This document shows, piece after piece, positions 10,606-63,239 of a stretch of DNA of 64,000 nt. Below the pieces are notes generated by a model, which was not told the origin of the DNA, searched no databases, and saw nothing but the letters and a program-made list of their open reading frames with translations. The stretch is taken from the NCBI GenBank assembly GCA_965262935.1, contig OZ253572.1, positions 4,420,042 to 4,484,041 of the forward strand. The letters run 5' to 3'. The position numbers and the translations under genes were made by a program. The DNA comes from Spirochaetia bacterium. Lineage in GTDB: Bacteria > Spirochaetota > Spirochaetia > SZUA-6 > Bin103. How positions within the stretch are numbered: position 1 is the stretch's first letter; each line of letters opens with the position of its first letter.

Positions 10606-13173
10606 ATGTCAGGGTCGAACGGCACCTCAACCGTAGGAGTTCGCGAGCGCGAGCGCCCTCATATTCCGCTCCAACGGGCGGTCGCGGTTCCCGCCTACGA
10701 CGCGGAACGATTCGAGCAGGTGGGTTTTCTGACCGCCATGACCCTTACCCTGCTCGGCAACTACGCGCAGACGGGCCACTTCGGCGGGCCGCTGGCCTAC
10801 ACCCCGTACAACGTCGCCCTGCATCTGGCGGGCCCCGACGCCGGCGGGCTGCGCTACGACTACCGCCGCCCCAAGCACCCGTTCGCGGACCGCTTCCTGC
10901 TCGCCGGCGGCCACAACGTTCCCACCGGCTACGCACTGTGGATGATCATGGGGGAGGCGCTGGCGCGGCGCCGCGCCGCTACCGGCGATGACCGCTACTA
11001 CGCGGACCCCAAGCAGGGGCTCCTGTCGATCGACTGCCTCGGGTTCCGGCGCGGCGCCGGTGCCCTGGCCACCCTGCTCGCCGATCACGGCCTGACCGAG
11101 GATCCGCTGTTCGCGCAAGCCAAGCTGCGCGGCATCCGCGCCCTGGCCGGCCACGCCGAGACCACCGACGTGACCAACGACGTGAACGGCGGCCCTTCCG
11201 GAATCGGCATCGGCAGCTCCGCCGGCAAGGCGGCGTTCTGGGACTTTGTCGGCGCGCCATCGTCGCTCAAGGTGATGGCACTGGAAGGGGAGTTCGCCAT
11301 GACCGCCGGCCATGCCCAGGAGTTGAAGACGCAGGCGATCGCCCAGCAGGTGGGCAAGCGGCTGCGCATCCTGCTGTCCTACAACAACGCCGGCATCGAC
11401 GACCGGCTGCAGGGCGGCGTGGTGCCGGACGGCATGGACGGGTACGACATCGCCGAACAATGGGCATCCTACGGGTGGAACGTCCTGTCGCTGGACAACG
11501 CCAACTGCTACGACGAAATCCTCGCCGCGATGCGCTCCATGGAGCAGTGGGATGCCGACGACCGGCGCCCGATGATCGTGGTCGGCCGCACCACCAAGGG
11601 CTGGTGGCCGGCCGCCACCAATGGCGCCATCCCGGGGTTCGGCGAGCAACTGGTCGGCTACCACAGCCATCCCTACGAGATGAAGATGAACGCGCCCTAC
11701 TTCGTCGCACTGGCCGCAACCTTCGAACAGCGCTTCGGGGTGACGTTCTCGGGCATCCGCGACGGCGCGGTCGATGATCCGCGCGAACGGCTGATCCAGT
11801 TCAAGACCAACATCGACATCGCCATGTCGGCCCTGGACCGGAACGGCCTCGGCGAGTGGCTGGCGGACCGCCTGCTGGAGATCGCCGACACCGTACCGAA
11901 CGCGTTGCCGTTGCGCATCGATGCGACCATCGATCCGTTCCAGGACGCCCGGCTGCAGGTGGCTTCCCTGCCGTCCGAACCGACCACGGTAGCCGTGACT
12001 CATCCCACCAGCGGCGAGCAGTCCGAGGTAACCGTCAACCTGTTCAAGAAACCCGGCGAGGTGGCCGGCACGCGGCGCGCCATCGCCGACGTGATCAAGT
12101 GGATGAACTACGTGACCGGCAACCGCTTCATCACCGTGGCCGCCGACCTGTCCGGGTCGATCAACGTCGAGAGCGGCTCGCTGACCGGTCACTACGACCC
12201 GGTGCGCAACCCCGCCGGCACCCGCTTCAAGGCCGCCATCCAGGAAGCGTGCAACACGCTCACGGCGATCGGACTGGTGAGCCAGAGCGCATCGCCGGAT
12301 GCCGGCGTGCACGGCGGCGTATGGGCGCTGAGCGGCAGCTACGGCGCGTTTACGCCGCTGATGTACCTGCCGGCGCGGGTGTGGAGCCAGCAGAATCAGG
12401 ACAGCCCGTTCCGAGTCGGCGTGCTGAACATCCTCGCCGGCCATTCCGGCCCCGAGACCGCCGCCGACGCGCGCACCCACTTCGGCATCTTCGCGCCGCA
12501 GGTGTGGCGCCTGTTTCCGCGCAACCAGGCCATCGTGCTCAACTTCTGGGATTACAACGACGTGGCGCCCGGTTACTTCGCGGCCGCCGAAATCGCCGCC
12601 CGCGAAGCGCAGGTCGGCATCATCGTCATCGAGGTGGCGCGCCCCGACTTCCCGGTGGCGGACCGCTCGACGTTCGCCGACAGCGACCGCAATGCGGCCG
12701 CCAAGGGCTTCTACCTGATCCGCGACTACGCCGCCGGCCGCCCGCGCCACGGCTACGTGGTGGTGCAGGGATCGAGTTCCACCTTCAACCTGGTGCAGGC
12801 GATTCCGCGGCTCGAGCAAGCGGGCATCAACGTCAAGATCGTTGCCGCGGTCAGCGAAGAGTTGTTCGACCGCCAGCCGCCGGCGTATCGCGACGCCGTG
12901 CTCCCCGCCGAGGCGCGCGCCGACATGATGGTGGTGAGCACCGGCACGCAGCGCATGTGGCCGTTGCGTGACGTCGGCCCGCTGGTGACCGAGTACTCGT
13001 TGACCTCGGACTGGCACCAGCGCTGGCTCACCGGCGGCAGCGAAGCCGACGTGATCGCCGAGGCGCACCTGGACACCGAATCGATCGTTGCCGGCGTGCA
13101 GCGGTTCGCGGCCGATCGCGCGCAGCGCCTCGACCGCCAGCGCCGGCTGCTCGCCGCGCTCGATCCCGCGTGA
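10606..13173 (+). CDS. transketolase-like TPP-dependent enzyme (855 aa)
   Basis: ORF 10378-13173. The start is set at ATG 10606, preceded by AAGGAG (10591-10596). GHFGGPLAYTPYNVALHL, GGHNVPTGYAL and NGGPSGIGIGSSAG resemble the transketolase N-terminal domain. Confidence 0.7.
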   Translation: MSGSNGTSTVGVRERERPHIPLQRAVAVPAYDAERFEQVGFLTAMTLTLLGNYAQTGHFGGPLAYTPYNVALHLAGPDAGGLRYDYRRPKHPFADRFLLAGGHNVPTGYALWMIMGEALARRRAATGDDRYYADPKQGLLSIDCLGFRRGAGALATLLADHGLTEDPLFAQAKLRGIRALAGHAETTDVTNDVNGGPSGIGIGSSAGKAAFWDFVGAPSSLKVMALEGEFAMTAGHAQELKTQAIAQQVGKRLRILLSYNNAGIDDRLQGGVVPDGMDGYDIAEQWASYGWNVLSLDNANCYDEILAAMRSMEQWDADDRRPMIVVGRTTKGWWPAATNGAIPGFGEQLVGYHSHPYEMKMNAPYFVALAATFEQRFGVTFSGIRDGAVDDPRERLIQFKTNIDIAMSALDRNGLGEWLADRLLEIADTVPNALPLRIDATIDPFQDARLQVASLPSEPTTVAVTHPTSGEQSEVTVNLFKKPGEVAGTRRAIADVIKWMNYVTGNRFITVAADLSGSINVESGSLTGHYDPVRNPAGTRFKAAIQEACNTLTAIGLVSQSASPDAGVHGGVWALSGSYGAFTPLMYLPARVWSQQNQDSPFRVGVLNILAGHSGPETAADARTHFGIFAPQVWRLFPRNQAIVLNFWDYNDVAPGYFAAAEIAAREAQVGIIVIEVARPDFPVADRSTFADSDRNAAAKGFYLIRDYAAGRPRHGYVVVQGSSSTFNLVQAIPRLEQAGINVKIVAAVSEELFDRQPPAYRDAVLPAEARADMMVVSTGTQRMWPLRDVGPLVTEYSLTSDWHQRWLTGGSEADVIAEAHLDTESIVAGVQRFAADRAQRLDRQRRLLAALDPA

Positions 13174-47943: not shown

Positions 47944-48229
47944 GGCCTGAGAGTGTACGCGTCCGGCATCGGGACAGCTATCGGTCCGCGCGGCCGCATC
48001 GCTGGGCGGCCGGTTTACGCTGGCAACCGGTCGAATCGTGCAGAGTATGGACGCTGGCGGGCACCGCAGTACCTGAGCCGGCCAGTCCTACGGGCACGAG
48101 CACGATGGCTTGGTCTCCACGTCGACCGAAAGATTCGCTAAGATAGACGCGAAATCAGGTGAAGCTCGTGCAACGGCGGACCCGGCGCGGCAAGGTCGAG
48201 GGGCATTTGAAGAAAATGGGACTGTCGCC

Positions 48230-49366
48230 ATGAGTCAAGAGTTCGATTTCGAGCATCTCGTCCGGTTGTGCCGGCGTGCGCATCAGGAAATGCAGGGGCG
48301 GGCCTCCCGCGCGGTCGATCGCTCGCTTGTCGAGCGGAATTGGCTTTTCGGGCGGTACGTCGTTGAATTCGAGAACGGCGGGGCAGATCGTACCGAACTC
48401 TATGGCAAAGCCTTGATTGCGCGTCTGTCCGCCAAGCTGAAAGCCGGGGGAGTCAAAGGGTGCTCTCAAACCAACCTGCGCAAGTTCCGTCACTTCTACC
48501 TGACCTATCCCGAGATTCAACAGACAGTGTCTGTTGAATCTCCTGAGCACACCGAGATTCGACAGACACCGCCTGTCGAATCACTCCTTACGCCTGCGGA
48601 CGACGGCACCATCGACCCCACGTACATAGGAGACCGATTCACCCTCGGCTGGTCCCACTACGTCACCCTCCTGACCATCGAAAACGCCGAAGCACGGCGC
48701 TTCTACGAGATCGAGGCGACGGACAACGGCTGGAGCGTGCGCGAGCTGGAGCGACAGATCGCCAGCTCCCTGTACGAGCGGCTCGCGCTCAGCCGCGACA
48801 AGGCCGCCGTCCGCCGGCTTTCCCGCGAGGGGCACGTGGTCGAGAAGGCGGCCGATCTGATCAAGAATCCGCTCGTGCTGGAGTTTCTCGGCTTGGAGGA
48901 AAAGCCGGCTTACTCCGAGAGCGAACTGGAGACGGCCATCATCGATCGGCTCCAACAGTTCCTGCTGGAGTTGGGCAAGGGATTCCTGTTCGAGGCGCGG
49001 CAGAAGCGGTTCACCTTCGACAACAAGCACTTTTTCGTGGACCTGGTTTTCTACAACCGCCTGCTGCGCTGCTACGTGCTGGTCGACCTCAAGCGCGGCG
49101 AGATAACCCATCAAGACCTCGGCCAGATGCAGATGTATGTGAACTACTTCGACCGCTACGTGAAGACCGAAGAAGAACTGCCAACCGTCGGCATCTTACT
49201 CTGCGGGAGCAAGAACGATGCCGTAGTCGAGCTGACACTACCGGAAGATACCAACATCTACGCATCCAAGTACCAGCTCTACCTGCCCTCTAAGCGAGAA
49301 CTCACTGCCCAACTGCAGAGTATCCAGAGAGAGTTGCGCAATCGGGAAGGCGAAGACGACAAATAG
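48230..49366 (+). CDS. yhcG: YhcG-family PDDEXK nuclease (DUF1016)
   Basis: ORF 48110-49366, start set at ATG 48230. RNWLFGRYVVE, WSHYVTLLTIEN...RRFYE, GWSVRELERQI, and the core GKGFLFEARQKRFTFDNKHFFVDLVFYNRLLRCYVLVDLKRG. Confidence 0.85.
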   Translation: MSQEFDFEHLVRLCRRAHQEMQGRASRAVDRSLVERNWLFGRYVVEFENGGADRTELYGKALIARLSAKLKAGGVKGCSQTNLRKFRHFYLTYPEIQQTVSVESPEHTEIRQTPPVESLLTPADDGTIDPTYIGDRFTLGWSHYVTLLTIENAEARRFYEIEATDNGWSVRELERQIASSLYERLALSRDKAAVRRLSREGHVVEKAADLIKNPLVLEFLGLEEKPAYSESELETAIIDRLQQFLLELGKGFLFEARQKRFTFDNKHFFVDLVFYNRLLRCYVLVDLKRGEITHQDLGQMQMYVNYFDRYVKTEEELPTVGILLCGSKNDAVVELTLPEDTNIYASKYQLYLPSKRELTAQLQSIQRELRNREGEDDK

Positions 49367-50074: not shown

Positions 50075-50220
50075 GCGACTATCCTATGACCCTCAGATAG
50101 TCACTTCGATCCGCCCGGGTCTCGGCGGTCTCGGGACGGACTGTTGCACTACCACCACACCGGTGGTATCAATCGACAGATGGGACAGACACGCTCGCGG
50201 CACAGCCGAGTCCACCGCCA

Positions 50221-51039
50221 GTGGCGCTGAACCGGCTGACCGCCAAACAGGTCGCCAGGTTCAAGATCGACGGGTTCCTGGTGGTCGAGGATCTGCTCGG
50301 CATGGAAGAAGTGGAGCGCCTGCGGCGCCACAGCGACCTGATCGCCGCGGGGAAGGCCGGCCACATCCCGGACGAAAGCACCTGGTTCGAGGAGGGCCAC
50401 GAGGCCGCGGCGGAATCCGGCCGGGGACGGGAGCGGGTGCTGTCGATCTTCAAACTGTTCAACCTGGCGGTACGCGACGCGGTCATGTGGCGGCACGCCA
50501 CCAACGTCAAGATCGTAGGAATAGTCAGAGATCTGCTCGCCACCGGCGACATCAAGATGTATGGCGACCAGCTCTTCATGAAGCCGCCGGAACGGGGATC
50601 GGCGATCCCATGGCATCAGGACTCGGCTTCGTGGTGCGACATGTTTCCGATGGACCTGGTGACCGCCTGGACCGCCATCGATCACGCCACCGAGGAGAAC
50701 GGCTGCCTGCGCTTCGTGCCAGGCACTCACCGTTGGGGCCGGCTGGTGGGCAAGGAGCCTCACGCCGGCATCCGGCCCGACGACGTGGAACCGTTCGACG
50801 CCGACCTCGGCGGCGAGTCGTGGCCAATCGTGCACGTGCCGCTACGTCCGGGAAGCGTCAGCTTCCACCACAGCCTGGTCCTGCACAGCAGCTCCGCCAA
50901 CACCTCCGGCAAGCGCCGCCGCGGCTACGCCGTGCACTACATGCGCGCCACCACCTGGCGCAACCCCGAGGTGGTCGGCGCCCCCGAGATGCCGCCTTTC
51001 AAGCAGGTGTGCGGGCGCTCGTTTCCCGGCCGCGTATAG
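50221..51039 (+). CDS. phytanoyl-CoA dioxygenase (PhyH) family Fe(II)/2OG oxygenase
   Basis: FKIDGFLVVEDLL, PWHQDSASW (HxD), TAWTAIDHATEENGCLRFVPGTH, and SVSFHHSLVLHSSSAN. Confidence 0.85.
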   Translation: MALNRLTAKQVARFKIDGFLVVEDLLGMEEVERLRRHSDLIAAGKAGHIPDESTWFEEGHEAAAESGRGRERVLSIFKLFNLAVRDAVMWRHATNVKIVGIVRDLLATGDIKMYGDQLFMKPPERGSAIPWHQDSASWCDMFPMDLVTAWTAIDHATEENGCLRFVPGTHRWGRLVGKEPHAGIRPDDVEPFDADLGGESWPIVHVPLRPGSVSFHHSLVLHSSSANTSGKRRRGYAVHYMRATTWRNPEVVGAPEMPPFKQVCGRSFPGRV

Positions 51040-54982: not shown

Positions 54983-55579
54983 CTACAGCAGTGACCAGTC
55001 CGGTTCCGCGAGCGGATCTCCCAGCGGCCCGAACGTGTTGCGCACGATGCGCCGCCCGTCGAACCAGTTCAGGTACTCGGTGGCCGGCTGCATGGCGTCG
55101 TGCCACTCGCTCATGAAGCGTCCGAGCGTCGCTTCCATCCGCGCCACGACGCGGCGGTGGTCCGCGCTAGTAGCGACCAGGTCGCGTACCTGCAGCGGAT
55201 CGGCGCGGATGTCGTACAGCGCCGTGCTCCCGTCGAGGCAACGCCAGTCGCTCCAGCGCCCGGTGCGCACACCCTTCCACCGGGTACGTTCGGCGGCAGC
55301 GACGGCTGTTCCGGAACGCGCCGCAGGCAGTCGTCGGGGGCGAGCCGGCCGCTTGAGCGGCTGCCTCCCGGTGACCAGCATCGAGCGATACGGCGCGCAC
55401 AGGGAGCAGGTGGCAACGGCGTTGCTGAACCTGATCCTCTCACGCACGAGGCGGTCGAGGTTCGGAGTCGCGATCTGGCGCTCGCCGTAAGCCGGCAGCG
55501 AGCGCGCCCGCAGTTGATCGGCCAGCAGATAGCCGACGTTGGGTTGCTTCATCGGCAGTATCACCCGCGGCTGCACCAC
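54983..55579 (-). pseudogene. sulfatase with large internal deletion
   Basis: 198-aa ORF. The N-terminal sulfatase segment PNVGYLLADQLRARSL...TPNLDRL...CSLCAPYRSMLVTGR (CxPxR) is joined directly to a C-terminal segment (LYDIRADPLQVRDL...). About 250 central residues are missing. Confidence 0.6.
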
Positions 55580-55805: not shown

Positions 55806-56777
55806 ATGAAGCGAGAACACGACATGGCGCCTACGCGGTTCTTCCACGAGATCTACGGCAACGTCCACGAGCTTCTCGATAAGGGCCCCTTCCGTTACGA
55901 ACGCGATCTGCAGGAGTTCTTCGAGAAGCACTTGCACACCCTGATTGGTGTTGAATTCCTCGCCTCGGAGCATCCGACTGGCCCGCTCCATGGCCGGCGA
56001 ATCGACACTTTGGGCATCGACGGGGCCGGTCGGCCCGTGGTCGTCGAGTACAAGCGGCGCCAGGATCAGAACGTCATCAATCAGGGGCTGGACTATCTCG
56101 CTTGGCTGGAGGACCATCAGGCGGAATTCCGAGAGCTTGTGCGAAAACAGCTCGGTGACGGGCGCGTCGCAGACATCGACTTCAGAGCGTCGCGCCTGCT
56201 GTGCATCGCCGAGGAATTCCCGCGTCAGGACAAGATCGCTGCGGAAAACAGCCGCCGGCCTATTGAACTGCTTCGCTACCGACGGTACGGCGATGCATAT
56301 GTGGCGCTGGAGTGGGTATACGGCGGCGAGGCACCGGAGCCGGTACCGCCGCCGGACATCCCACCAGCACCCCCCAAGCGCGCTGCGGGCGAAGACCCCG
56401 ACTACTCCCTTTACAAGACCTGGGACAAGACCAGCGAGGAAACCCAGACTCTCTTCCACGAGCTCGAGAAGTTGGTGAAGTCGCTCGGCAGTGTGCAAAC
56501 GGACTTTCACAAGAGCGTGATCTCATTCAAGTGCACGGCCGCCCCGGGCGACAAGCCGCCGGTAGTTGCTTACGTCCATCTTCGTGTCCGGAGCGGCCTC
56601 CGCGTACATATCCAAGAGAAGCACCTGGAGGCCATCCCTCTCGAGGACGGCTTCACTCGCCCCCACAATCGTATGTACCGAGAGATCGTCATCCGTGACC
56701 GGGAACACATCCGAAGGACGAAGCCGCTGTTGCGTGCAGCCTACGACGCTCTCTGTCGGCAGGCCGGTGCGTGTTAG
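55806..56777 (+). CDS. PD-(D/E)xK nuclease-like (NucS/DUF91-type core) protein with C-terminal DUF5655-like domain
   Basis: 323-aa ORF. ERDLQEFFEKHLHTLIG..., RRIDTLGIDGAGRPVVVEYKRRQDQNVINQGLDYLAWL (D...EYK), and a C-terminal F.....VSFK...VAYVHLR..GLRVHI pattern. Confidence 0.55.
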   Translation: MKREHDMAPTRFFHEIYGNVHELLDKGPFRYERDLQEFFEKHLHTLIGVEFLASEHPTGPLHGRRIDTLGIDGAGRPVVVEYKRRQDQNVINQGLDYLAWLEDHQAEFRELVRKQLGDGRVADIDFRASRLLCIAEEFPRQDKIAAENSRRPIELLRYRRYGDAYVALEWVYGGEAPEPVPPPDIPPAPPKRAAGEDPDYSLYKTWDKTSEETQTLFHELEKLVKSLGSVQTDFHKSVISFKCTAAPGDKPPVVAYVHLRVRSGLRVHIQEKHLEAIPLEDGFTRPHNRMYREIVIRDREHIRRTKPLLRAAYDALCRQAGAC

Positions 56778-56877
56778 GATGCGTGGCATTACTCGATACA
56801 GCGTCAACGCGGTTCCGCGCTCGGCTCCGGAAAGTGAACCGGAGTGTCCAGAGTTTCCGGGCTGCCGGCAGGTCCGG

Positions 56878-57015
56878 ATCTCGCGGGAGGCAATCGCCCA
56901 CAGGCCGCTGTTGGAGCAGCACTACGGCCGCCGCTTCCAGCGCCTGCCCTACTCACGGCGCGAACTGTTCGAGCAGATCGAGCAGCCGGCCCTGACGCCG
57001 TTACCGCAACACCAC
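56878..57015 (+). pseudogene. IS21 IstA internal fragment
   Basis: ISREAIAHRPLLEQHYGRRFQRLPYSRRELFEQIEQPALTPLPQHH resembles the ...HRP....PGSRR..FE..ERPAL.PLP segment of IS21-family transposases. No flanking IS features. Confidence 0.3.
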
Positions 57016-57169
57016 TCCCGCTGCAGCAGACCCGCGAAGTTACGCGCCCGCCAGGCGCCTCCGATCCCTTGGCTGGCGACGGGTGGTGCACGCGCGAGGG
57101 CGGCCCCCTCGCGGAGCCGGGAGCGGGACGGCCGCCGACCGCGCCGACCTGCAGCGGTTGGCAGTCGCC

Positions 57170-57580
57170 CTAGCCGGAATCCACAGTCAGCCAGCCGGTT
57201 CCGACCTGGAACCCGAGTGCTGCAGCGACTTCCCGTTGCGGACCGTCGAGGGTAATGAATCCAATCTCCTTTGCCCTTGGCGCGACGTAGAGCGCCGTGG
57301 CGATGTGCCACAGATCCGCACCCCGCAGGTAGCCGGCCTCCAGCGCGCGCGCCAGCTCGATAGCCAGCGGTCGGTCTGGCAGAATCCACTCGATCCTGGA
57401 GAACACCTCTGCGTCGAATTCTAGCCGCTCGCGAGCGAACGCCGCGCGCAGTTCCGCCTCCAGGAGATTCGACGACAGCAACCGCGAGAAGCTTTCCAGT
57501 CGCTCACCGGCTTGGCTAGCACCCGGTTCCTCGAAGGCGATGGCGACCAGCGTGGAAGTGTCAACGTAGGCGATGCTCAC
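57170..57580 (-). CDS. vapC: PIN-domain VapC toxin
   Basis: 136-aa ORF. MSIAYVDTSTLVA, SNLLEAEL, LRGADLWHIATAL and FITLDGPQ give all four acidic PIN positions. Confidence 0.85.
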   Translation of the reverse strand: MSIAYVDTSTLVAIAFEEPGASQAGERLESFSRLLSSNLLEAELRAAFARERLEFDAEVFSRIEWILPDRPLAIELARALEAGYLRGADLWHIATALYVAPRAKEIGFITLDGPQREVAAALGFQVGTGWLTVDSG

Positions 57581-57852
57581 CCGTTGCGCTCGGCAAGAAA
57601 GCGCTTGAGCGCACCTGCTCTGCGCGCCACGGTCACCAGCGGCTTACGTCGTGCACGCTGGCGCACCAGGATGCCACGCCGTTCCAGCTCGGCGAGCCGC
57701 TCTCCGATGGTCTGAGGCGTTTTCTCGATAGGCCGAATCTCTGCTACTGGCTCGCCGCGGCGAGTAACAGTGACCGGAGTGCCGGAGCTTACCAGACGCA
57801 GTACCTCGGAGAAGCGAGCCTTGGCTTCGTATGTGGAGAAGGTGGCATTCAT
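57577..57852 (-). CDS. Phd/YefM-type antitoxin partner of VapC
   Basis: The start is set at MNATFSTYEAKARFSEVLRLVSSGTPVTVTRRGEPVAEIRP (ATG 57852) within ORF 57577-58305. The stop overlaps the vapC start by 4 nt. Confidence 0.8.
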   Translation of the reverse strand: MNATFSTYEAKARFSEVLRLVSSGTPVTVTRRGEPVAEIRPIEKTPQTIGERLAELERRGILVRQRARRKPLVTVARRAGALKRFLAERNG

Positions 57853-58259
57853 CACGTCATTGTGACTAGTCAGACTATCTATGGCAACCGAATAGATCAT
57901 GCAATCATGCAAAGGATGCGATTCGTGCCACGGCGGCGGCTTCCCGCGTCCCAACCATGCAACGCAACTTCGCCGGGGCTCGCTCTGCGCCCCGCCCGCG
58001 CCGACCGCGGCTCGCTCAGCCGATCCTTGCCCGGAATCCGCTCCTTGCGCCGCCTGGACCGGCCTGCCGAGCGCCCTCGCCACCACTCTTCGCCGTGTCG
58101 CCGCTGCCAAACATCCTCTCCAGGCCGTCAACCACCGTTCACCGAGAATCGCTGGCTGGCTGTGGTTCAGCTTGACATTCTTGTGCGTGATTTGATATTC
58201 AAGGCGCGGTAAACCCGATAATTCATTTGGTGCCATAAAGTTGCTAAGTACCACCATGG

Positions 58260-58288
58260 TTGACACAGATTTCATAGTAGAGTATGCT
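58260..58288 (+). promoter_or_regulatory. sigma70-type promoter at the left edge of the low-G+C island
   Basis: TTGACA (58260-58265), a 17-nt spacer, then TATGCT (58283-58288). A second TTGACA lies at 58299-58304 and a third at ~58173, all in an AT-rich tract. Confidence 0.4.
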
Positions 58289-58386
58289 ATAGGGGCGGTT
58301 GACAACTATTCCGTGAATGATACGGTGCACGCCGAAACGCCCGGTACCACCGCACACGAAATCAGGTAGCCGGCTTGGAGTACGAG

Positions 58387-58533
58387 ATGAGCGTACCACA
58401 CTCTGAGCGCCGGATGTCGCGCAGGGCGGTCCTACCCGTGCCCGTCTGGAGTGCTGTGAAACTCCCGCCCCATGGCCAAGAACGCAGTATACGGCGCCCG
58501 GAGGTGTTATACGTTCCTAGGTATCGCGTATGA
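58387..58533 (+). CDS. possible 48-codon leader ORF coupled to the orphan operon
   Basis: ATG 58387 lies 6 nt after GGAG. The ORF reads MSVPHSERRMSRRAVLPVPVWSAVKLPPHGQERSIRRPEVLYVPRYRV*, and its TGA overlaps ATG 58530 (ATGA). No homology recognised. It may instead be a structured 5' leader. Confidence 0.25.
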   Translation: MSVPHSERRMSRRAVLPVPVWSAVKLPPHGQERSIRRPEVLYVPRYRV

Positions 58534-59159
58534 ACGTTGAAATGGTCGATTGGCTGAACGCCAGCGTCGTAATAGTCGGGTCAGGACTACTGGAAACTGA
58601 GAAGGAAATCCGTTCGTTTGCCGATCGAACCTCACCACAAGAAGTTCGATACAATTCCCTCCAGGGTCCGGACGGCACGAAACTCACTGCACAGTTAGAA
58701 ATCCGCAAGGAACGGGTTACCATCGAGGGAAGTAACGAGCGGGTAGCTATAGTCAAGGAGTATCCTGATGATGGTTGGGAAAGGCTTGCGGATATTGCTA
58801 CATTCGTTCTCGAATCCAGCGCGAATCCGGTTCTGACTGCTCGTGGTTACAATGTTGCGTTGGTATTCGGTTCGCAACAAGAGGTGACCGCCGACGAATA
58901 CATAGTTTCCAACATTTTTGCCTCTCTCGCAGTACCAGGATGGAATTTGAGTGGCGGCCTGGCCACTCTTAGATTTAAGGATGAAAACTGTCAAGGGGTT
59001 TGGACAGTGAAGATTGAGCCTCGTGTCGGTAGTAATGATCGTAGGGTATTCATGGATCTGAACCTCCATCTCCCCGGTGCGATAGAGTTGGATGAGATTG
59101 GTTATTACGTCGACTATACGCGTTCTGGAGCACTCTCTTTCTTGGAGTCCTTGAAGTGA
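58530..59159 (+). CDS. hypothetical protein A of orphan low-G+C operon
   Basis: 209-aa ORF with ~50% G+C and balanced amino-acid composition. No motif recognised. The stop overlaps the next start (GTGA). Confidence 0.6.
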   Translation: MNVEMVDWLNASVVIVGSGLLETEKEIRSFADRTSPQEVRYNSLQGPDGTKLTAQLEIRKERVTIEGSNERVAIVKEYPDDGWERLADIATFVLESSANPVLTARGYNVALVFGSQQEVTADEYIVSNIFASLAVPGWNLSGGLATLRFKDENCQGVWTVKIEPRVGSNDRRVFMDLNLHLPGAIELDEIGYYVDYTRSGALSFLESLK

Positions 59160-59881
59160 GCAGCAAGCAGTTTGGAATGGTGAACTTAGGTCGTCAGGTT
59201 AGACCCGGACTCGTTCCACATCAGTATAGATTCCACGTTGGTGATCGAGATCAGCCCTCGGATTCGACTAGCGACTACCATCCGGAAGCGGAGGCCATTC
59301 TTGACACTCGGGTGGTACGTCCCGTGGAGCCTGTCTCGCCCGCCGATGTTCTCGATCTGAACAGTGAGTACGACTTGCTCTACGGCACCGGTTTCCATTG
59401 CTCAACTCATCTCAGCATGGAAGTTGCCAAGAGGCGCTTGCTGGAAGCTGGGTTCATCTCTGGAAGCTACAAGATCGCCTCGTTGATCCATCCAACCTTT
59501 CAGGAGAATACTAGGGATCGAGAGCACCTTCTGAGCATGATCGATGAGGTTGAACAGGAGGCCAACAAGCCTGACTGGGATGGCGATGGTGCGGTTCCGC
59601 TGGACGCAGGTACTGTAGCGGTCGCCAGGGACCTTGTCGGTTGCTTTCCTTCGCTCAAGGAGCTTCCGGATGTCTCGGCTAGCCCACGCGGAGAGATAGA
59701 CTTCGATTGGGAAATTGAAAGACGGGTATCCCTCACGATATGTGTCTGTCGGCCGCCCCGTCACGACATCGTGTTTCTATCAACCAACGGAGCTACGGAG
59801 GTACGTGGTAGAGCGCCGTGGGACGGTGAGTTGCCTCAACCGGTTCGGTGCTGCTTCGAGATTATGAAGGGCTATCTTTGA
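59156..59881 (+). CDS. hypothetical protein B of orphan low-G+C operon
   Basis: 241-aa ORF with GTG start. The C-terminal part contains KPDWDGDGAVPLDAGTVAVARDLV...PDVSASPRGEIDFDWE. No assignable family. Confidence 0.6.
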   Translation: MSSKQFGMVNLGRQVRPGLVPHQYRFHVGDRDQPSDSTSDYHPEAEAILDTRVVRPVEPVSPADVLDLNSEYDLLYGTGFHCSTHLSMEVAKRRLLEAGFISGSYKIASLIHPTFQENTRDREHLLSMIDEVEQEANKPDWDGDGAVPLDAGTVAVARDLVGCFPSLKELPDVSASPRGEIDFDWEIERRVSLTICVCRPPRHDIVFLSTNGATEVRGRAPWDGELPQPVRCCFEIMKGYL

Positions 59882-60301
59882 GTGAAAGTGAGTACATTCT
59901 CCAGGTTCGCATACCATCGGAAAGAAGTGAACAGTACCCGGGCTCACTGGAGGTTGTTCTTACCACCTGAGGATGGAAATCTATCGATCTTCTCTGTCGA
60001 TGGGCTGTCTGAATCAGAGACTACGGATCTTGGTAGAAAAAAAGGACAGAAGCGGGCGGACAAACGTGGTGAGGACGTTTATCTTTACGGATGGGCTCGT
60101 CTCGGCAAGAAAGCACATGCGGTACTCATGGAGGAGAGGCTTTCGTTGAAACCTGATAACCGTCATCACAATGTTGTTGGATGGCCAGATGACGAGCTTG
60201 AAGTACGGCGTATCGCGAAAAGAGTCGCCTGTAGCTGCTGTTCACTATTGCTTGCTTGTCCGGTGAGGATTAGTCCAGCTCCCGCGCAAGCTGGCCCCTG
60301 A
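59882..60301 (+). CDS. hypothetical protein C of orphan low-G+C operon
   Basis: 139-aa ORF starting the nucleotide after the stop of B. HWRLFLPPEDGNLSIFSVDGLSESE...LYGWARL...HHNVVGWPDDELEVRRIAKRVA. No assignable family. Confidence 0.5.
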   Translation: MKVSTFSRFAYHRKEVNSTRAHWRLFLPPEDGNLSIFSVDGLSESETTDLGRKKGQKRADKRGEDVYLYGWARLGKKAHAVLMEERLSLKPDNRHHNVVGWPDDELEVRRIAKRVACSCCSLLLACPVRISPAPAQAGP

Positions 60302-60866
60302 ATCCTGCGCGTCCAGCCTTCCCACGATGGAAGCTGAGCCGTCGCCGGTACGGTGAGAGAGGTCACCGAGCAACTTGACCTCTTTACCATCTGCCATGTA
60401 CGTAGTTATGGGACCGGCTGCCCAGTGCGCGCGTGTCCTTATACGTGGCCATCGTCGGGTTGCCGGCGCCCTTGGGCCGTTCGCGATGCTCGCCTACGTT
60501 TGCCAATATGGCCGAGCGGTTGGGACAGATGTACCTGGAGGCGGAAGCCGACCGGCTCCCGCCTCCGGCGACCCCAAGGTCGACTACCGCCATCTCAGGC
60601 CCATCTTTGTCCTGCTCAACGTAGATCACCCGGCGCGTAAGCTCGGGCGCCACCTCATGACCTCGCCGAGGCCAGCCGACACCTCGATCTTCCCTCCCAA
60701 GCCGCTCACGATGTCATCAACCAGGCTCACAACCGACCGATTCTACCTTAACCTGCCTCTTGACATGTCGAAGGAACCAGGACCACCCCACCTTGACCGA
60801 TTTGACGATTAGGGGGTATAAAGTGACCAATCATCGTTTCATCTTTGAAATTACGAAGTCGATTGT

Positions 60867-61712
60867 ATGGCATACGATCATTACATTCCCCAGTTTATTC
60901 TGCGTAACTGGTCCATTGATCGGACTCACATCTGGACGTACTCTAGGAAGTCCGGCGTACAGCGAAAGCGCATCGACAAAGTTTTTGGTGGACGGAATCT
61001 ATATGCAAGGAAGTCTATCGACTCAACCAATAGTGCGAGCACTTCTGCGGATCCAAGAAAATTTCGACAGAGTGTTCGTAGCGACCCGCATCCCTACGAC
61101 CGAGACACAATGGGTCCATTAGAGTCGGCCGCGGCGCCAATCATAAAGCGCATTATCGTACGAGTTAAGCGTGGGCATCGACCACTTTAGAGTAGACGTG
61201 ACGCCGAGATACTGCAACAGTTTCTGTTTCTGACGGTTCGTCGCACACCGGAATCCCAACAGCGGATTTTTGAAGACTCAACGAAACAGGCTGACGAATT
61301 GGGTCTCGCGATCCTTAATGATCGCTTGAAAGATAGTCAGTACGATTATTCGTTCCAGAACTTGGAAGACTTGCATGAACAGTTTCCCCATACAGAGATT
61401 GTCCGAGATGTTGTGCGCTCAAACACCTTGGCGCAGTTTTCCGCGGGCGCAACTCCGAAGTTGCGCGCAGAGATCAAGCGGTTTTGCGAGGAAACGGGGT
61501 TCTTGATCCTTTCGACAAACGACACGCCGGGACAGTTTATTGTTTGAAGCTACGGACATGCTCCTGTAGTGACGAGCGATCGCGAGAAGTACGGTGTGGG
61601 CGTTATTCTACCGAGGTTGTTGTCTCAAACAAATATCGCAATGGCGGAACAGAGCCACACTATAGTTGCATCAACAAAGTACGAATTGCTGAAGTTTGGG
61701 CGCTATATGTAA
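60867..61712 (+). pseudogene. DUF4238 family gene with two in-frame stop codons
   Basis: The N-terminus MAYDHYIPQFILRNWS is the DUF4238 signature (HY.PQFYLR.F). One 281-codon frame is interrupted by TAG 61188-61190 and TGA 61545-61547, then continues (..LQQFLFLTVRRTPESQQ.., ..FLILSTND..). Confidence 0.6.
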
Positions 61713-62177: not shown

Positions 62178-62624
62178 CTCGGAGGTTAGTGAGATATCAG
62201 GGATAGCGATAGAGCGCTTGTCGGACGGGTTTGGGTTGAAAGTCAATCTGCGTCGACAACCAACCACCATGGATGACTTGCCAAAGTCATACAAGGGCGT
62301 ACCTATCCGGTACGAAGTGGTTGGCGTTATTCGGGCACTTTCTGTACGACACGAGCGTACTTCCTTGTGGCCGGGCGGTTCTTCTGGCCGGCCTGACGCG
62401 CTCTGACCCGTTGGCAGGCACGCCCTTACGTGTACTTCGTCACTGCGCCCTTCACGGCTACAGCGCCCGAAGAGAAGGGCGGCGACCACGCGAGTGGTGC
62501 GCCACCCACCGGCAAGCATGGCCTCGGTCGTGATAGCGTCGCGGCCGGTGAGTTCGGAGGCGAGCTTGGCGCGCCCTGAATGCCCCGTGACACGCCCCTC
62601 CACGCCGCCCCAGTAGTCTTCGAA

Positions 62625-63239
62625 CGGCGGTCCCCTCACCAACGTCAAGGTGCGGCTAAGGCGAAGGCGCTGATGGTGGAAGCCGGCTATGCCGACGGCC
62701 TGGAGATGGATCTCTGGGGCCACAAGGAAGGCATCCAGGGCGTCAGCCCGCCGCTGATGATCGAGAAGATCGGCGCCGACCTGGACAAGATCGGGATCAA
62801 GACCACGCTCAAGTCGCCCACCTGGACGGTGATGTTCGAGAGTCTCTACAGCACCGATCCGGAAGCGCATTCTCCGGCGCTCTACCTCAAGGGCTACGGA
62901 GCGCAGGGCAGCAGCGATCCCGATGCTCCCGGCGGCTTCCCGGATCTGCTCACGGACCACCGCACGGTGGTCGAGGCTTCCGGCTTCAAGAAGGAGTACC
63001 TGCCCGACGTCGACTTCGACTACATCGACGAGATGATGGCCAAGATCAAGTCGGAAACCGATCCCGATGCGCGCAGCATGGCGGTCCAGGAGCTGGACCG
63101 GTACCTGCTGGTGTGGCACACCAACCTGCCGCTGACCCAGTCCCAGGACACGGCCGCCTACCGGTCCGACCTGAGCGGCGTGTACTGGCACGGATTCACC
63201 GACACCTTCGACTGGGCGGCGATCAGGAGAAGCCAGTAG
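62625..63239 (+). pseudogene. family-5 ABC substrate-binding protein, C-terminal part (internally deleted)
   Basis: A GPLTNVKVR trace in one frame is followed by AKAKALMVEAGYADGLEMDLWGHKE...KIGIKTTLKSPTWTVMFE...ETDPDARSMAVQELDRYL in ORF 62580-63239. Confidence 0.6.

Follow-up and report, generated by a model that had tools for sequence, protein, structure and literature searches.

Three adjacent genes of no recognisable family, here called A, B and C, lie on a low-G+C block in the 64,000-nt stretch of Spirochaetia bacterium DNA that was analysed (the window). The first-pass annotation had put them forward as a candidate novel defence or toxin-antitoxin (TA)-like system. The question raised by this locus is whether the three genes constitute a conserved unit and, if so, what kind of system that unit might encode.

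Organization of the operon

The three ORFs are intact, translationally coupled and positioned exactly as first called (Table 1). The A/B junction reads GAAGTGAGC, so that the TGA of A overlaps the GTG of B, and a GGAG is found 8 nt upstream of that GTG. No nucleotides (0 nt) separate the TGA of B from the GTG of C, and both junctions, of 4 nt and 0 nt, are accompanied by Shine-Dalgarno-like sites. Production of a B-C fusion by stop-codon readthrough was considered and rejected: the two genes are in a common frame here, but overall this was the case in 22 of 100 loci, and the median distance from the stop of B to the start of the C profile was 36 nt (100 loci). The possible fourth gene suggested in front of A (ORF U) was dropped, leaving a three-gene operon, as its frame is split by a 1-nt indel in L001, the sole relative that could be aligned there. 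In more distant cassettes no homology was detected upstream of the start of A. The 5' leader contains two candidate promoters, TTGACA-16-GATATT (58172-58199) and TTGACA-17-TATGCT (58260-58288), and both TTGACA boxes are kept in the alignment with L001. This promoter evidence is weak, since the consensus scan returned 3 sites where 1.7±1.2 were expected. An Rfam scan of 56500-61500 produced no significant match.

Table 1. Features of the A-B-C locus in the window
Feature	Position	Strand	Description
Mobile cassette (leader, A, B and C)	58152-60345	+	Low-GC insert
Two sigma-70-like promoter matches	58172-58288	+	5' leader, consensus scan; candidates only
Small ORF U	58375/58387-58533	+	Probably not a gene; part of 5' leader
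Gene A	58530-59159	+	209 aa, ATG start; first-slot accessory protein, rare family
Gene B	59156-59881	+	241 aa, GTG start
Gene B, N-terminal half (residues 1-111)	59156-59488	+	Variable extension, predicted to be disordered
Gene B, C-terminal domain (residues ~112-241)	59489-59881	+	Family-defining conserved alpha/beta domain
Gene C	59882-60301	+	139 aa, GTG start; candidate effector/toxin, small alpha/beta protein

Foreign origin and mobility

The low G+C content of the block was confirmed, at 0.485-0.55 over 58200-60400 (400-nt windows) versus 0.61-0.71 in the flanks, the latter having been overestimated at 70-78% in the first reading. GC3 values of 0.50 (A), 0.59 (B) and 0.47 (C) compare with 0.88-0.95 for typical host genes. 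A blastn alignment to L001, a cassette in a Spirochaetia MAG (OZ242313.1), showed 90% identity over 2196 nt, began and ended sharply at exactly 58152 and 60345, and was bounded by unrelated flanks. Together with the atypical GC3 this bears out the earlier view of the block as foreign: the window cassette is horizontally acquired DNA of ~2.2 kb. The flanks also differ among L001, L002, L004, L005 and L134, and the 2.2 kb are transferred together as one piece.

A module of this kind could be encoded by a phage or another mobile element and serve that element, not the host, in counter-defence or addiction. Transposases adjoin several cassettes (IS66 in L002, L003 and L005; a Mu-like transposase in L134), one cassette lies on a contig classified by IMG/VR as viral (L129), and a TIGR04255-B-C-like cassette (TIGR04255 is described below) is placed terminally in a Ralstonia prophage record, adjoining a PAAR-DUF4123-Tox-REase-5 module. 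However, T6SS genes are present where the Ralstonia record ends, so this part may be host DNA, and no integrase or transposase was found adjacent to the window cassette. Among the 2.9 million viral contigs of IMG/VR there was no relative of B and one of C, and 50,697 phage genomes contained no match to B. We consider service to the element a very unlikely explanation.

Conservation of the B-C pair

Orthologues of A, B and C, in the same order and at 52-92% identity, were found on five independent contigs, so that the triplet recurs in other genomes. Values of dN/dS were 0.14-0.34 for A (0.16-0.31), the C-terminal domain of B, and C, which places A, B and C alike under purifying selection; the first reading had proposed either selection or recent acquisition from their intact reading frames. 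Within B, dN/dS was 0.73 for the N-terminal half versus 0.14 for the C-terminal half; half of this protein, the disordered half, evolves almost neutrally. The B gene of L001 was left out of these calculations, its in-frame stop having shifted the codon threading (an artefact).

The part of the module that is conserved is B followed by C, with B directly upstream of C in 91 of 91 testable loci. The B family occupies 40 genome loci across many phyla, and hosts include Spirochaetia, Binatia, Latescibacterota, Dehalococcoidia, Thermodesulfobacteriota, Proteobacteria, Planctomycetes and Acidobacteriota; the pair is patchy in distribution and is conserved across at least eight phyla. Three two-gene modules (L021, L026 and L032) consist of a short B and C and lack the first gene. 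C was missing beside B in 13 of 105 loci, and it was frameshifted or split next to an intact B in four loci (L004, L016, L037 and L044). This one-sided dependency of C on B is typical of toxin/antitoxin pairs.

In four of the 13 loci lacking C, the gene after B encodes a TIR, FRG+TPR or AAA_15/21 protein, in some cases inside type I restriction-modification (R-M) loci. L015 has two B genes: a short B precedes a protein with a Pfam TIR_2 domain (the corresponding protein of L030 is nearly identical in sequence), and a B located downstream of a fused N6_Mtase/Methylase_S gene precedes the FRG+TPR protein. In L028 an AAA_15/AAA_21 ATPase gene follows a B that is itself downstream of HsdS.

If the genes were a small, mobile accessory operon serving the cell outside any conflict, for instance by encoding a helper complex in regulation or metabolism, this would account for the many cassettes that sit amid ordinary metabolic genes (L004, L006, L008 and L009) and for the lack of a recognisable toxin or nuclease motif in A, B or C. 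In L029 and L135 an orphan B is translationally coupled to purC, directly upstream of it, and hence B can exist in non-conflict contexts. Such a role fits poorly with the patchy spread over these phyla, with the foreign composition and the variable flanks around a sharp 2.2-kb unit, with several copies per genome in L029 and L035, with the R-M loci and effector genes beside B, and with the association of TIGR04255 and a zeta toxin described below; overall we think it unlikely.

Protein C

The three products had been described as unrecognisable, and four HMM libraries and PDB sequences indeed assigned no family to any of them. Protein A had no match in Pfam, NCBIfam, PHROGs, PADLOC or PDB sequences, and B had none in Pfam, NCBIfam, PHROGs or PDB sequences. 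C had none in NCBIfam, PHROGs or PADLOC, nor among PDB sequences with either shallow or deep profiles, and Pfam matched none of 114 members of its family (C and 113 relatives). In PADLOC-DB v2, A and C were without a match, B matched only PDC-M32A, and the TIGR04255, B and C proteins of canonical cassettes were negative or weak. Across the libraries searched, A, B and C showed no homology to a known toxin, antitoxin or defence protein. AlphaFold gave confident models of the C-terminal domain of B and of C, and Foldseek found no fold match for either.

Relatives of C formed 221 representative clusters (50% identity; E≤1e-3), mostly of standalone proteins of 125-135 aa, and the source names of the members all read 'hypothetical protein'. 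The model of C had a pLDDT of 94.4 and a pTM of 0.86, with best Foldseek E values of 0.26 against the PDB and 0.11 against BFVD. Residues R8, P28, S35, H95, N97, G100, W101 and P102 are 85-96% conserved; R8, S35, H95 and N97 make up a near-invariant polar set, and R38 is present in most relatives. C thus looks like an enzyme-like alpha/beta protein of ~130 aa, where 'enzyme-like' is drawn from the conserved residues only, since its fold matched no known toxin.

Among known toxin superfamilies, C matched none of RelE/ParE, PIN, MazF, HipA, zeta, Fic/Doc, GNAT, ART, RES and HEPN in the Pfam, PDB sequence and Foldseek searches (no Foldseek match at E<0.1). An R-S-E ADP-ribosyltransferase (ART) toxin was considered because R8, S35 and H95 fall on predicted strands 1, 2 and 5, and was not supported: His replaces the catalytic Glu, and ART structures were absent from the Foldseek matches. 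Matches of C residues 75-112 to giant CARD-NACHT repeat proteins were judged spurious. Each repeat matches weakly to a clade-specific 'GW.DEE.EVR' segment, with scores summed over 6-18 repeats, and a broad C profile matched no CARD-NACHT protein.

Protein B

The C-terminal domain of B (~115 aa, alpha/beta) has the motif 'WDGxGA...P.G.I.F.W'. It was modelled with pLDDT >90 as helix-helix-five strands-helix, and its best match to a PDB fold had an E value of 0.3; residues 1-111 had a pLDDT <50. Over 106 sequences, conservation reaches 90% or more at W141, D142, A146, P171, G179 and W185. Conservation of the N-terminal half is absent in distant homologues, and its length varies with the first gene (Mann-Whitney p=0.02): this N-terminal, predicted disordered extension is ~125 aa with A, ~56 aa (46-99) with TIGR04255, and often ~12 aa where there is no first gene.

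These residue patterns suggest a division of labour, in which C keeps polar residues while the conserved positions of B are mostly W, G and P. They bear on the converse assignment of roles, in which toxicity or effector activity would reside in B (or A) and C would supply the antitoxin or immunity function. C is small, as such a protein might be, and gene order alone does not decide the matter, as the antitoxin gene is downstream in some TA families. The catalytic-looking polar residues are nevertheless in C, and B is half disordered; moreover, B occurs alone or with other effectors and C never without B, the opposite of what would be expected if B were the toxin. Of the explanations we weighed, reversed roles appear the least probable.

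Protein A and the first-gene slot

The A family is rare, with six clusters among 5.8 billion proteins, and 13 non-redundant loci have A in front of B. Usually the first gene encodes a protein of TIGR04255, an NCBIfam family described as 'sporadically distributed', which fills the slot of A directly upstream of B-C in 55 of 78 C-anchored loci. The window has the rarer protein A in this slot, apparently unrelated to TIGR04255 by sequence. Motifs compared by eye (GYNV versus RYIN; DLNLH versus LDIDY) had raised the suspicion that A is a diverged TIGR04255 protein, an idea that profile searches did not support. At a cut-off of 30 bits the NCBIfam TIGR04255 HMM did not match A of the window or the A-family members of L009, L017 and L034, whereas the first-slot proteins of L047 and L051 scored 82.6 and 67.6 bits. 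Two hhalign runs of the A profile versus TIGR04255 gave probabilities of 0.04-0.2%, the value being 0.04% with a 54-sequence TIGR04255 profile.

TIGR04255 genes were also seen on plasmids. On Vibrio plasmid CP063527.1 a TIGR04255 gene is followed by a 179-aa gene and then a Zeta_toxin gene, and on a Thermus plasmid TIGR04255 lies beside VapBC and Cas6. The middle and third genes following TIGR04255 on Crinalium, Thermus and Vibrio plasmids are outside the B and C families. In the literature searched we found no mention of TIGR04255, CHP04255 or IPR026349.

Genomic neighborhood

The surroundings of the window cassette had been called defence-island-like, which holds only modestly: this is a small accessory islet and not a large defence island. 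The VapBC pair at 57170-57852 was identified as a VapC PIN protein (57170-57580) and a Phd/YefM protein (57577-57852). The supposed PDDEXK/DUF5655 nuclease at 55806-56777 had a weak DUF5655 match and a strong PADLOC match to PDC-S18 (E 1e-72). The DUF4238 remnant was recovered as a fragment (60867-61190; E 8e-11), and YhcG was found at 48110-49366; the ORF taken for another VapBC (50169-50579) had no Pfam match. Most other neighbors are metabolic (PhyH, amidohydrolase, sulfatase and ABC-transporter fragments).

Some of these surroundings suit a non-toxic, infection-activated defence of three components, in which sensing would fall to A or TIGR04255 and the effector function to C, with B as an adaptor or scaffold and not an antidote, all three being held in an inert complex until a phage cue. 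Cassettes occur in defence islands (L002, with a type ISP R-M enzyme, a GmrSD fragment and PycTM as neighbors) and here beside PDC-S18; the B domain pairs with TIR, FRG and AAA_15/21 proteins inside R-M loci; the first-slot proteins are interchangeable, with an extension of B matched to them; and B has no recognisable DNA-binding domain. That C depends strictly on B, and that it decays where B stays intact, fits an antidote at least as well, however, and the modules of short B and C do without a first gene. We regard infection-activated defence as a minority possibility to be taken seriously.

A model for the A-B-C module

In our assessment the chances are about even that A-B-C is a three-part system of a family not described before, either TA-like or acting by abortive defence. 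The original proposal of a defence or TA-like system thus gains support at the level of inference, from the dependence of C on B, the effector partners of B and the occurrence of TIGR04255 with a zeta toxin. Weighing against it are the cassettes amid metabolic genes, the orphan B genes at purC, the scarcity of B and C in viral contigs, the absence of a DNA-binding domain from B, and the failure of A, B and C to match known toxins, antitoxins or defence proteins. C would be a growth-inhibiting effector, and the C-terminal domain of B, which also pairs with TIR, FRG+TPR and AAA_15/21 effectors, would bind C and neutralise or control it. The N-terminal extension may tether B to the first-gene product, so that A would stabilise or sense through B. 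C would then be freed if A or B were lost or titrated away, as might happen when a phage infects or the element disappears.

A broader and bolder reading, which we hold tentatively and think somewhat doubtful, is that first gene-B-C represents a new modular tripartite conflict class. A promiscuous B domain would couple effectors (C, TIR, FRG, AAA_15/21) to interchangeable first-slot partners by means of a matched disordered 'addiction' extension, and C would be a toxin whose catalytic fold has no counterpart in the PDB. A first functional assignment would then follow for TIGR04255, an orphan family of wide distribution.

B and C are without a family annotation or a structural relative, yet the pair is conserved across at least eight phyla. 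If the TA-like or abortive-defence reading is true, the module would provide a new effector fold; a new neutraliser domain that swaps partners, among them TIR, FRG and OLD-like ATPase effectors; and a second, unrelated example of an antitoxin with a disordered extension that relies on a third protein. If it is wrong, this is still a widespread mobile operon. Cultured organisms are represented: Ralstonia solanacearum has a cassette, and Vibrio, Crinalium and Thermus have TIGR04255 modules on plasmids.

Comparison with known systems

Classical type II antitoxins carry a DNA-binding domain (HTH, RHH, AbrB or Phd) and autoregulate. B differs in this respect: neither Pfam nor NCBIfam revealed a recognisable DNA-binding domain, and its model consists of a disordered N-terminus and an alpha/beta domain. 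The pair resembles type II systems in being made up of adjacent, co-directional, coupled small genes and in the pattern of a putative toxin never found without its putative antitoxin, with orphans of the latter occurring. The weak PADLOC signal of B to PDC-M32A (E 0.015 for the window protein; 1.7e-4 for B of L051) reflects an alignment of the B domain to profile positions ~257-340, that is, only ~80 of 375 positions, with scores below any safe threshold; PDC-M32 is a phage-defence candidate in PADLOC that is itself uncharacterised.

The module shares with omega-epsilon-zeta an arrangement of three genes with the toxin last (C being the putative toxin here), and on the Vibrio plasmid TIGR04255 holds the position of omega. 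However, C and B are not zeta and epsilon proteins, respectively, and TIGR04255 and A proteins are 210-260 aa long and lack a ribbon-helix-helix domain.

Toxin-antitoxin-chaperone (TAC) systems consist of HigBA, HicAB or MqsRA together with a SecB-like chaperone. No SecB-like domain was found in A by Pfam, NCBIfam or PDB sequence searches, B and C are outside known toxin and antitoxin families, the extension of B is N-terminal whereas that of TAC is C-terminal, and the accessory gene comes first and not last. The likeness lies in the three coupled small genes; the predicted disordered extension of B, present with the third gene and largely absent in two-gene versions, may be a parallel to the chaperone-addiction (ChAD) extension of TAC antitoxins. 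Panacea/DUF4065 is a hyper-promiscuous antitoxin domain. The B domain has far fewer documented partner types and neither a Pfam nor a PDB fold match, but like Panacea it is found upstream of unrelated effectors, namely C, TIR_2, FRG+TPR and AAA_15/21 proteins.

Organization and composition of the operon

The first-pass annotation had described three coupled plus-strand genes, designated here A, B and C, and an ORF listing returned all three with the same boundaries. The GTG start of B is overlapped by the TGA stop of A (GAAGTGAGC), with a GGAG lying 8 nt 5' of this junction, and the GTG of C directly follows the TGA of B with no spacer, as had been reported. The block has a G+C content of 0.485-0.55 compared with 0.61-0.71 on both sides, so that the low-G+C island stands, but the 70-78% first estimated for its flanks was too high. 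Third codon positions set the operon apart from the host more sharply than overall G+C: GC3 is 0.50 in A, 0.59 in B and 0.47 in C, versus 0.88-0.95 in typical host genes of the window. The possible fourth gene proposed upstream was rejected: its frame can be aligned only in the closest relative (L001, Spirochaetia MAG contig OZ242313.1), where a 1-nt indel breaks it, and it was therefore treated as part of a leader of ~380 nt. Two sigma-70-like matches in this leader are candidate promoters; the evidence is weak, since three sites were observed where 1.7 were expected.

Coordinates of features in the window and in other loci (L-numbers) carrying cassette genes
Feature	Location	Strand	Remarks
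Gene A	58530-59159	+	209 aa
Gene B	59156-59881	+	241 aa, GTG start
Gene C	59882-60301	+	139 aa, GTG start
Upstream ORF (rejected)	58375-58533	+	52 codons
VapC (PIN) and Phd/YefM antitoxin	57170-57852	-	E 2e-10 and 6e-9; intact pair, 4-nt overlap, directly 5' of cassette
PDC-S18 candidate nuclease	55806-56777	+	323 aa, PADLOC E 1e-72
YhcG/DUF1016 PDDEXK nuclease	48110-49366	+	E 3e-53
Sulfatase	54983-55579	-	N-terminus only
DUF4238	60867-61190	+	N-terminal fragment
SBP_bac_5	62580-63239	+	middle part
GC-rich element	57919-58156		~240 nt
Copies of GC-rich element	L002 19475-19714; L004 15931-16072		L004 copy reversed
IS66 and DruA-like (PF14236)	L002 13621-16045; L003 4668-7092; L005 5372-7763
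Two short-B genes	L015 5298-12384		Latescibacterota; TIR_2 gene at 11515-12384
TIGR04255, 179-aa hypothetical, Zeta_toxin-family	L132 158-2105		Vibrio parahaemolyticus plasmid CP063527.1; zeta Pfam E 3e-12
TIGR04255-B-C-like	L133 377-4384		Ralstonia phage YO139_2 record ON170239.1
Orphan B overlapping or abutting purC (SAICAR synthase)	L135 8001-9388; L029 7686-9356		Thermodesulfobacteriota-type contigs

Protein families and predicted folds

None of the three proteins had a significant match in Pfam, NCBIfam, PHROGs or PADLOC, the sole library signal being that of B to PADLOC PDC-M32A (E 0.015), and profile searches of PDB sequences gave no match. Public sources label every sampled member 'hypothetical protein', and a Pfam domain was found in none of 114 C-family members checked. 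One half of B is variable and predicted to be disordered, and the other is a conserved domain. In its AlphaFold2 model (14-sequence alignment), residues 1-111 have pLDDT <50, and residues 112-240, with pLDDT >90, start with a pair of helices, continue as an antiparallel sheet of five strands and end in a further helix. The model of C (114-sequence alignment) reached pLDDT 94.4 and pTM 0.86. Foldseek gave no PDB match for B (best E 0.3), and C had none in the PDB (best E 0.26) or BFVD (best E 0.11); the products first called unrecognisable are so in fold as well, for the confident models of C and the B C-terminal domain. Conserved positions in B are mainly W, G and P, and those of C include a polar set of R8 (90%), S35 (95%), R38 (79%, Ser in the window clade), H95 (96%) and N97 (85%), together with a G100-W101-P102 turn. 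Giant CARD-NACHT proteins (P0024-P0027, P0029 and others), in which a ~150-aa repeat with '...LEVLKLQ.EKKPVELRGWSDEESEVRSF' recurs 6-18 times, were rejected as relatives of C, since they reached a narrow C profile only via summed weak matches.

Distribution of the B-C pair

Few relatives came from a word-indexed protein search, in which B was represented by 14 clusters, A by 6 and C by 2, and an exhaustive HMMER search placed 221 representative clusters (E≤1e-3), mainly standalone proteins of 125-135 aa, in the C family. In the contexts of five relatives A and B are adjacent with a 4-nt overlap, and tblastn placed C immediately 3' of B in each of the five contigs, where gene callers had left it uncalled. 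A B-anchored genome scan gave 40 loci, every one from a MAG, spread over Spirochaetia, Binatia, Latescibacterota, Dehalococcoidia, Thermodesulfobacteriota, Alpha-, Beta- and Gammaproteobacteria, Planctomycetes and Acidobacteriota. A metagenome scan anchored on C added 77 loci. Six-frame ORFs of these and of one locus classified as viral (L129) were searched with profiles; B is directly 5' of C in 71 of the 78, C lies at a contig edge in the remaining seven, and a gene resembling TIGR04255, the NCBIfam family that usually fills the first slot, directly precedes B in 55.

Across all non-redundant loci B is upstream of C in 91 of 91 testable cases, a conserved co-occurrence and gene order, and B occurs without C in 13 of 105. 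In four loci (L004, L016, L037, L044) C is split or frameshifted beside an intact B, and three (L021, L026, L032) are two-gene modules of a short B and C. The core of the cassette is the B-C pair, with C dependent on B. Even in the most distant loci, L047 and L051, the downstream genes align to C (hhalign probability 88.6%, E 2.6e-6) over the motifs F.P, SV.R, G.A and HA.I.

The first slot and the B extension

The first genes of L047 and L051 exceed the NCBIfam TIGR04255 cut-off (E 4e-23 and 1e-18). The A family (15 unique sequences) fills this position in other loci but is absent from the C-anchored metagenome set, and hhalign detected no kinship between it and TIGR04255 (probability 0.2% from shallow profiles, 0.04% from one built on 54 sequences). 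No paper found by literature search mentions TIGR04255. The length of B preceding its 113-position conserved domain tracks the first gene (Mann-Whitney p=0.02), with a median of 125 aa behind A (range 63-145, n=13), 56 aa behind TIGR04255 (46-99, n=42) and 43 aa where there is no first gene (n=29, bimodal, many ~12 aa).

Partner genes and conflict context

Short B genes without C precede other genes. One L015 copy lies between a fused N6_Mtase/Methylase_S gene and an FRG+TPR gene and the second is 5' of a TIR_2 gene (Pfam E 1.8e-17), whose product is near-identical to the protein after the short B of L030; in L028 a short B 3' of HsdS is followed by an AAA_15/AAA_21 ATPase. Orphan B genes lie 5' of purC in L029 and L135. 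L135 is also bordered by two GajA/GajB-like (OLD-TOPRIM + UvrD) pairs.

In cultured bacteria, plasmids carry further small cassettes that TIGR04255 heads, with partners of neither the B nor the C family: two hypothetical genes in Crinalium, one beside VapBC and Cas6 in Thermus brockianus, and in Vibrio a block ending in a zeta-toxin-family gene, which puts a known toxin in the slot held elsewhere by C. In a prophage record from Ralstonia solanacearum, TIGR04255 (E 9e-50), B (E 4e-9) and a gene with weak similarity to C (hmmsearch E 1.5e-4) adjoin a T6SS effector module of the PAAR-DUF4123-Tox-REase-5 type. They stand at one end of the record, which is P2-like and unverified and probably continues into host DNA.

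Proximity to defence genes varies among cassettes: that of L002 is surrounded by a type ISP R-M enzyme, a PycTM gene and a GmrSD fragment, together with IS66 and a group II intron, and the neighbours in L004, L006 and L008 are metabolic. Of the defence-type genes first described around the cassette in the window, the VapC/Phd pair, the PDC-S18 gene and the DUF4238 fragment are neighbours. YhcG (GC 0.59, below its neighbours) is a second small accessory islet ~9 kb 5' of the cassette, with metabolic genes between. The PDC-S18 gene, which PADLOC lists as a phage-defence candidate, is intact and moderately low in GC (0.61); the N-terminal nuclease region of its product is NucS-like, and the C-terminal part has a weak DUF5655 match. 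Gene fragments around the islet suggest that genes have inserted and decayed here more than once. The GC-rich element just 5' of the cassette is single-copy in the window and has no Rfam match; copies 76-78% identical to it lie at 5-9 kb from the cassette in two further contigs.

Mobility and selection

Besides being coupled, the operon evolves under purifying selection and moves horizontally. Identity to the nearest genome copy, that of L001, is 90% over exactly 58152-60345 and then ends, and this sharp boundary, with the GC3 contrast, upholds the foreign origin proposed earlier. Flanks are unlike in every locus, including a 94%-identical copy (L134) that adjoins a Mu-like transposase. In three contigs an IS66-family transposase gene overlaps a DruA-like gene beside the A-B-C cassette, and this pair may be the vehicle that moves it. 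Nei-Gojobori dN/dS was 0.16-0.31 for A, 0.16-0.30 for C and 0.14-0.15 for the B C-terminal domain, in agreement with the selection first suggested, and 0.73 for the B N-terminal half (B values without L001).

Proposed function and comparison with known systems

A defence or TA-like function, as first proposed, is at present the hypothesis that these sequence comparisons support best. We give about an even chance to a TA-like arrangement in which C would be an effector or toxin and the B C-terminal domain would bind and restrain it, and elsewhere other effectors. The B extension would bind the first-gene product, so that A or TIGR04255 might control B stability or sense a trigger, by analogy with TAC systems, whose antitoxins are chaperone-addicted. 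The main alternative, an infection-activated sensor-adaptor-effector complex lacking constitutive toxicity, is judged less probable; the sequence data fit both readings.

The cassette failed every membership test applied, whether for known type II toxin and antitoxin families, for all PADLOC systems or for ART toxins, and protein A failed that for TIGR04255. It differs from TAC in having no SecB-like protein, and from omega-epsilon-zeta in that C is not a zeta toxin. Among known systems, it would come closest in its working to tripartite TA or abortive-infection modules that use a promiscuous neutraliser domain; its proteins and folds are new, and its logic is probably familiar.
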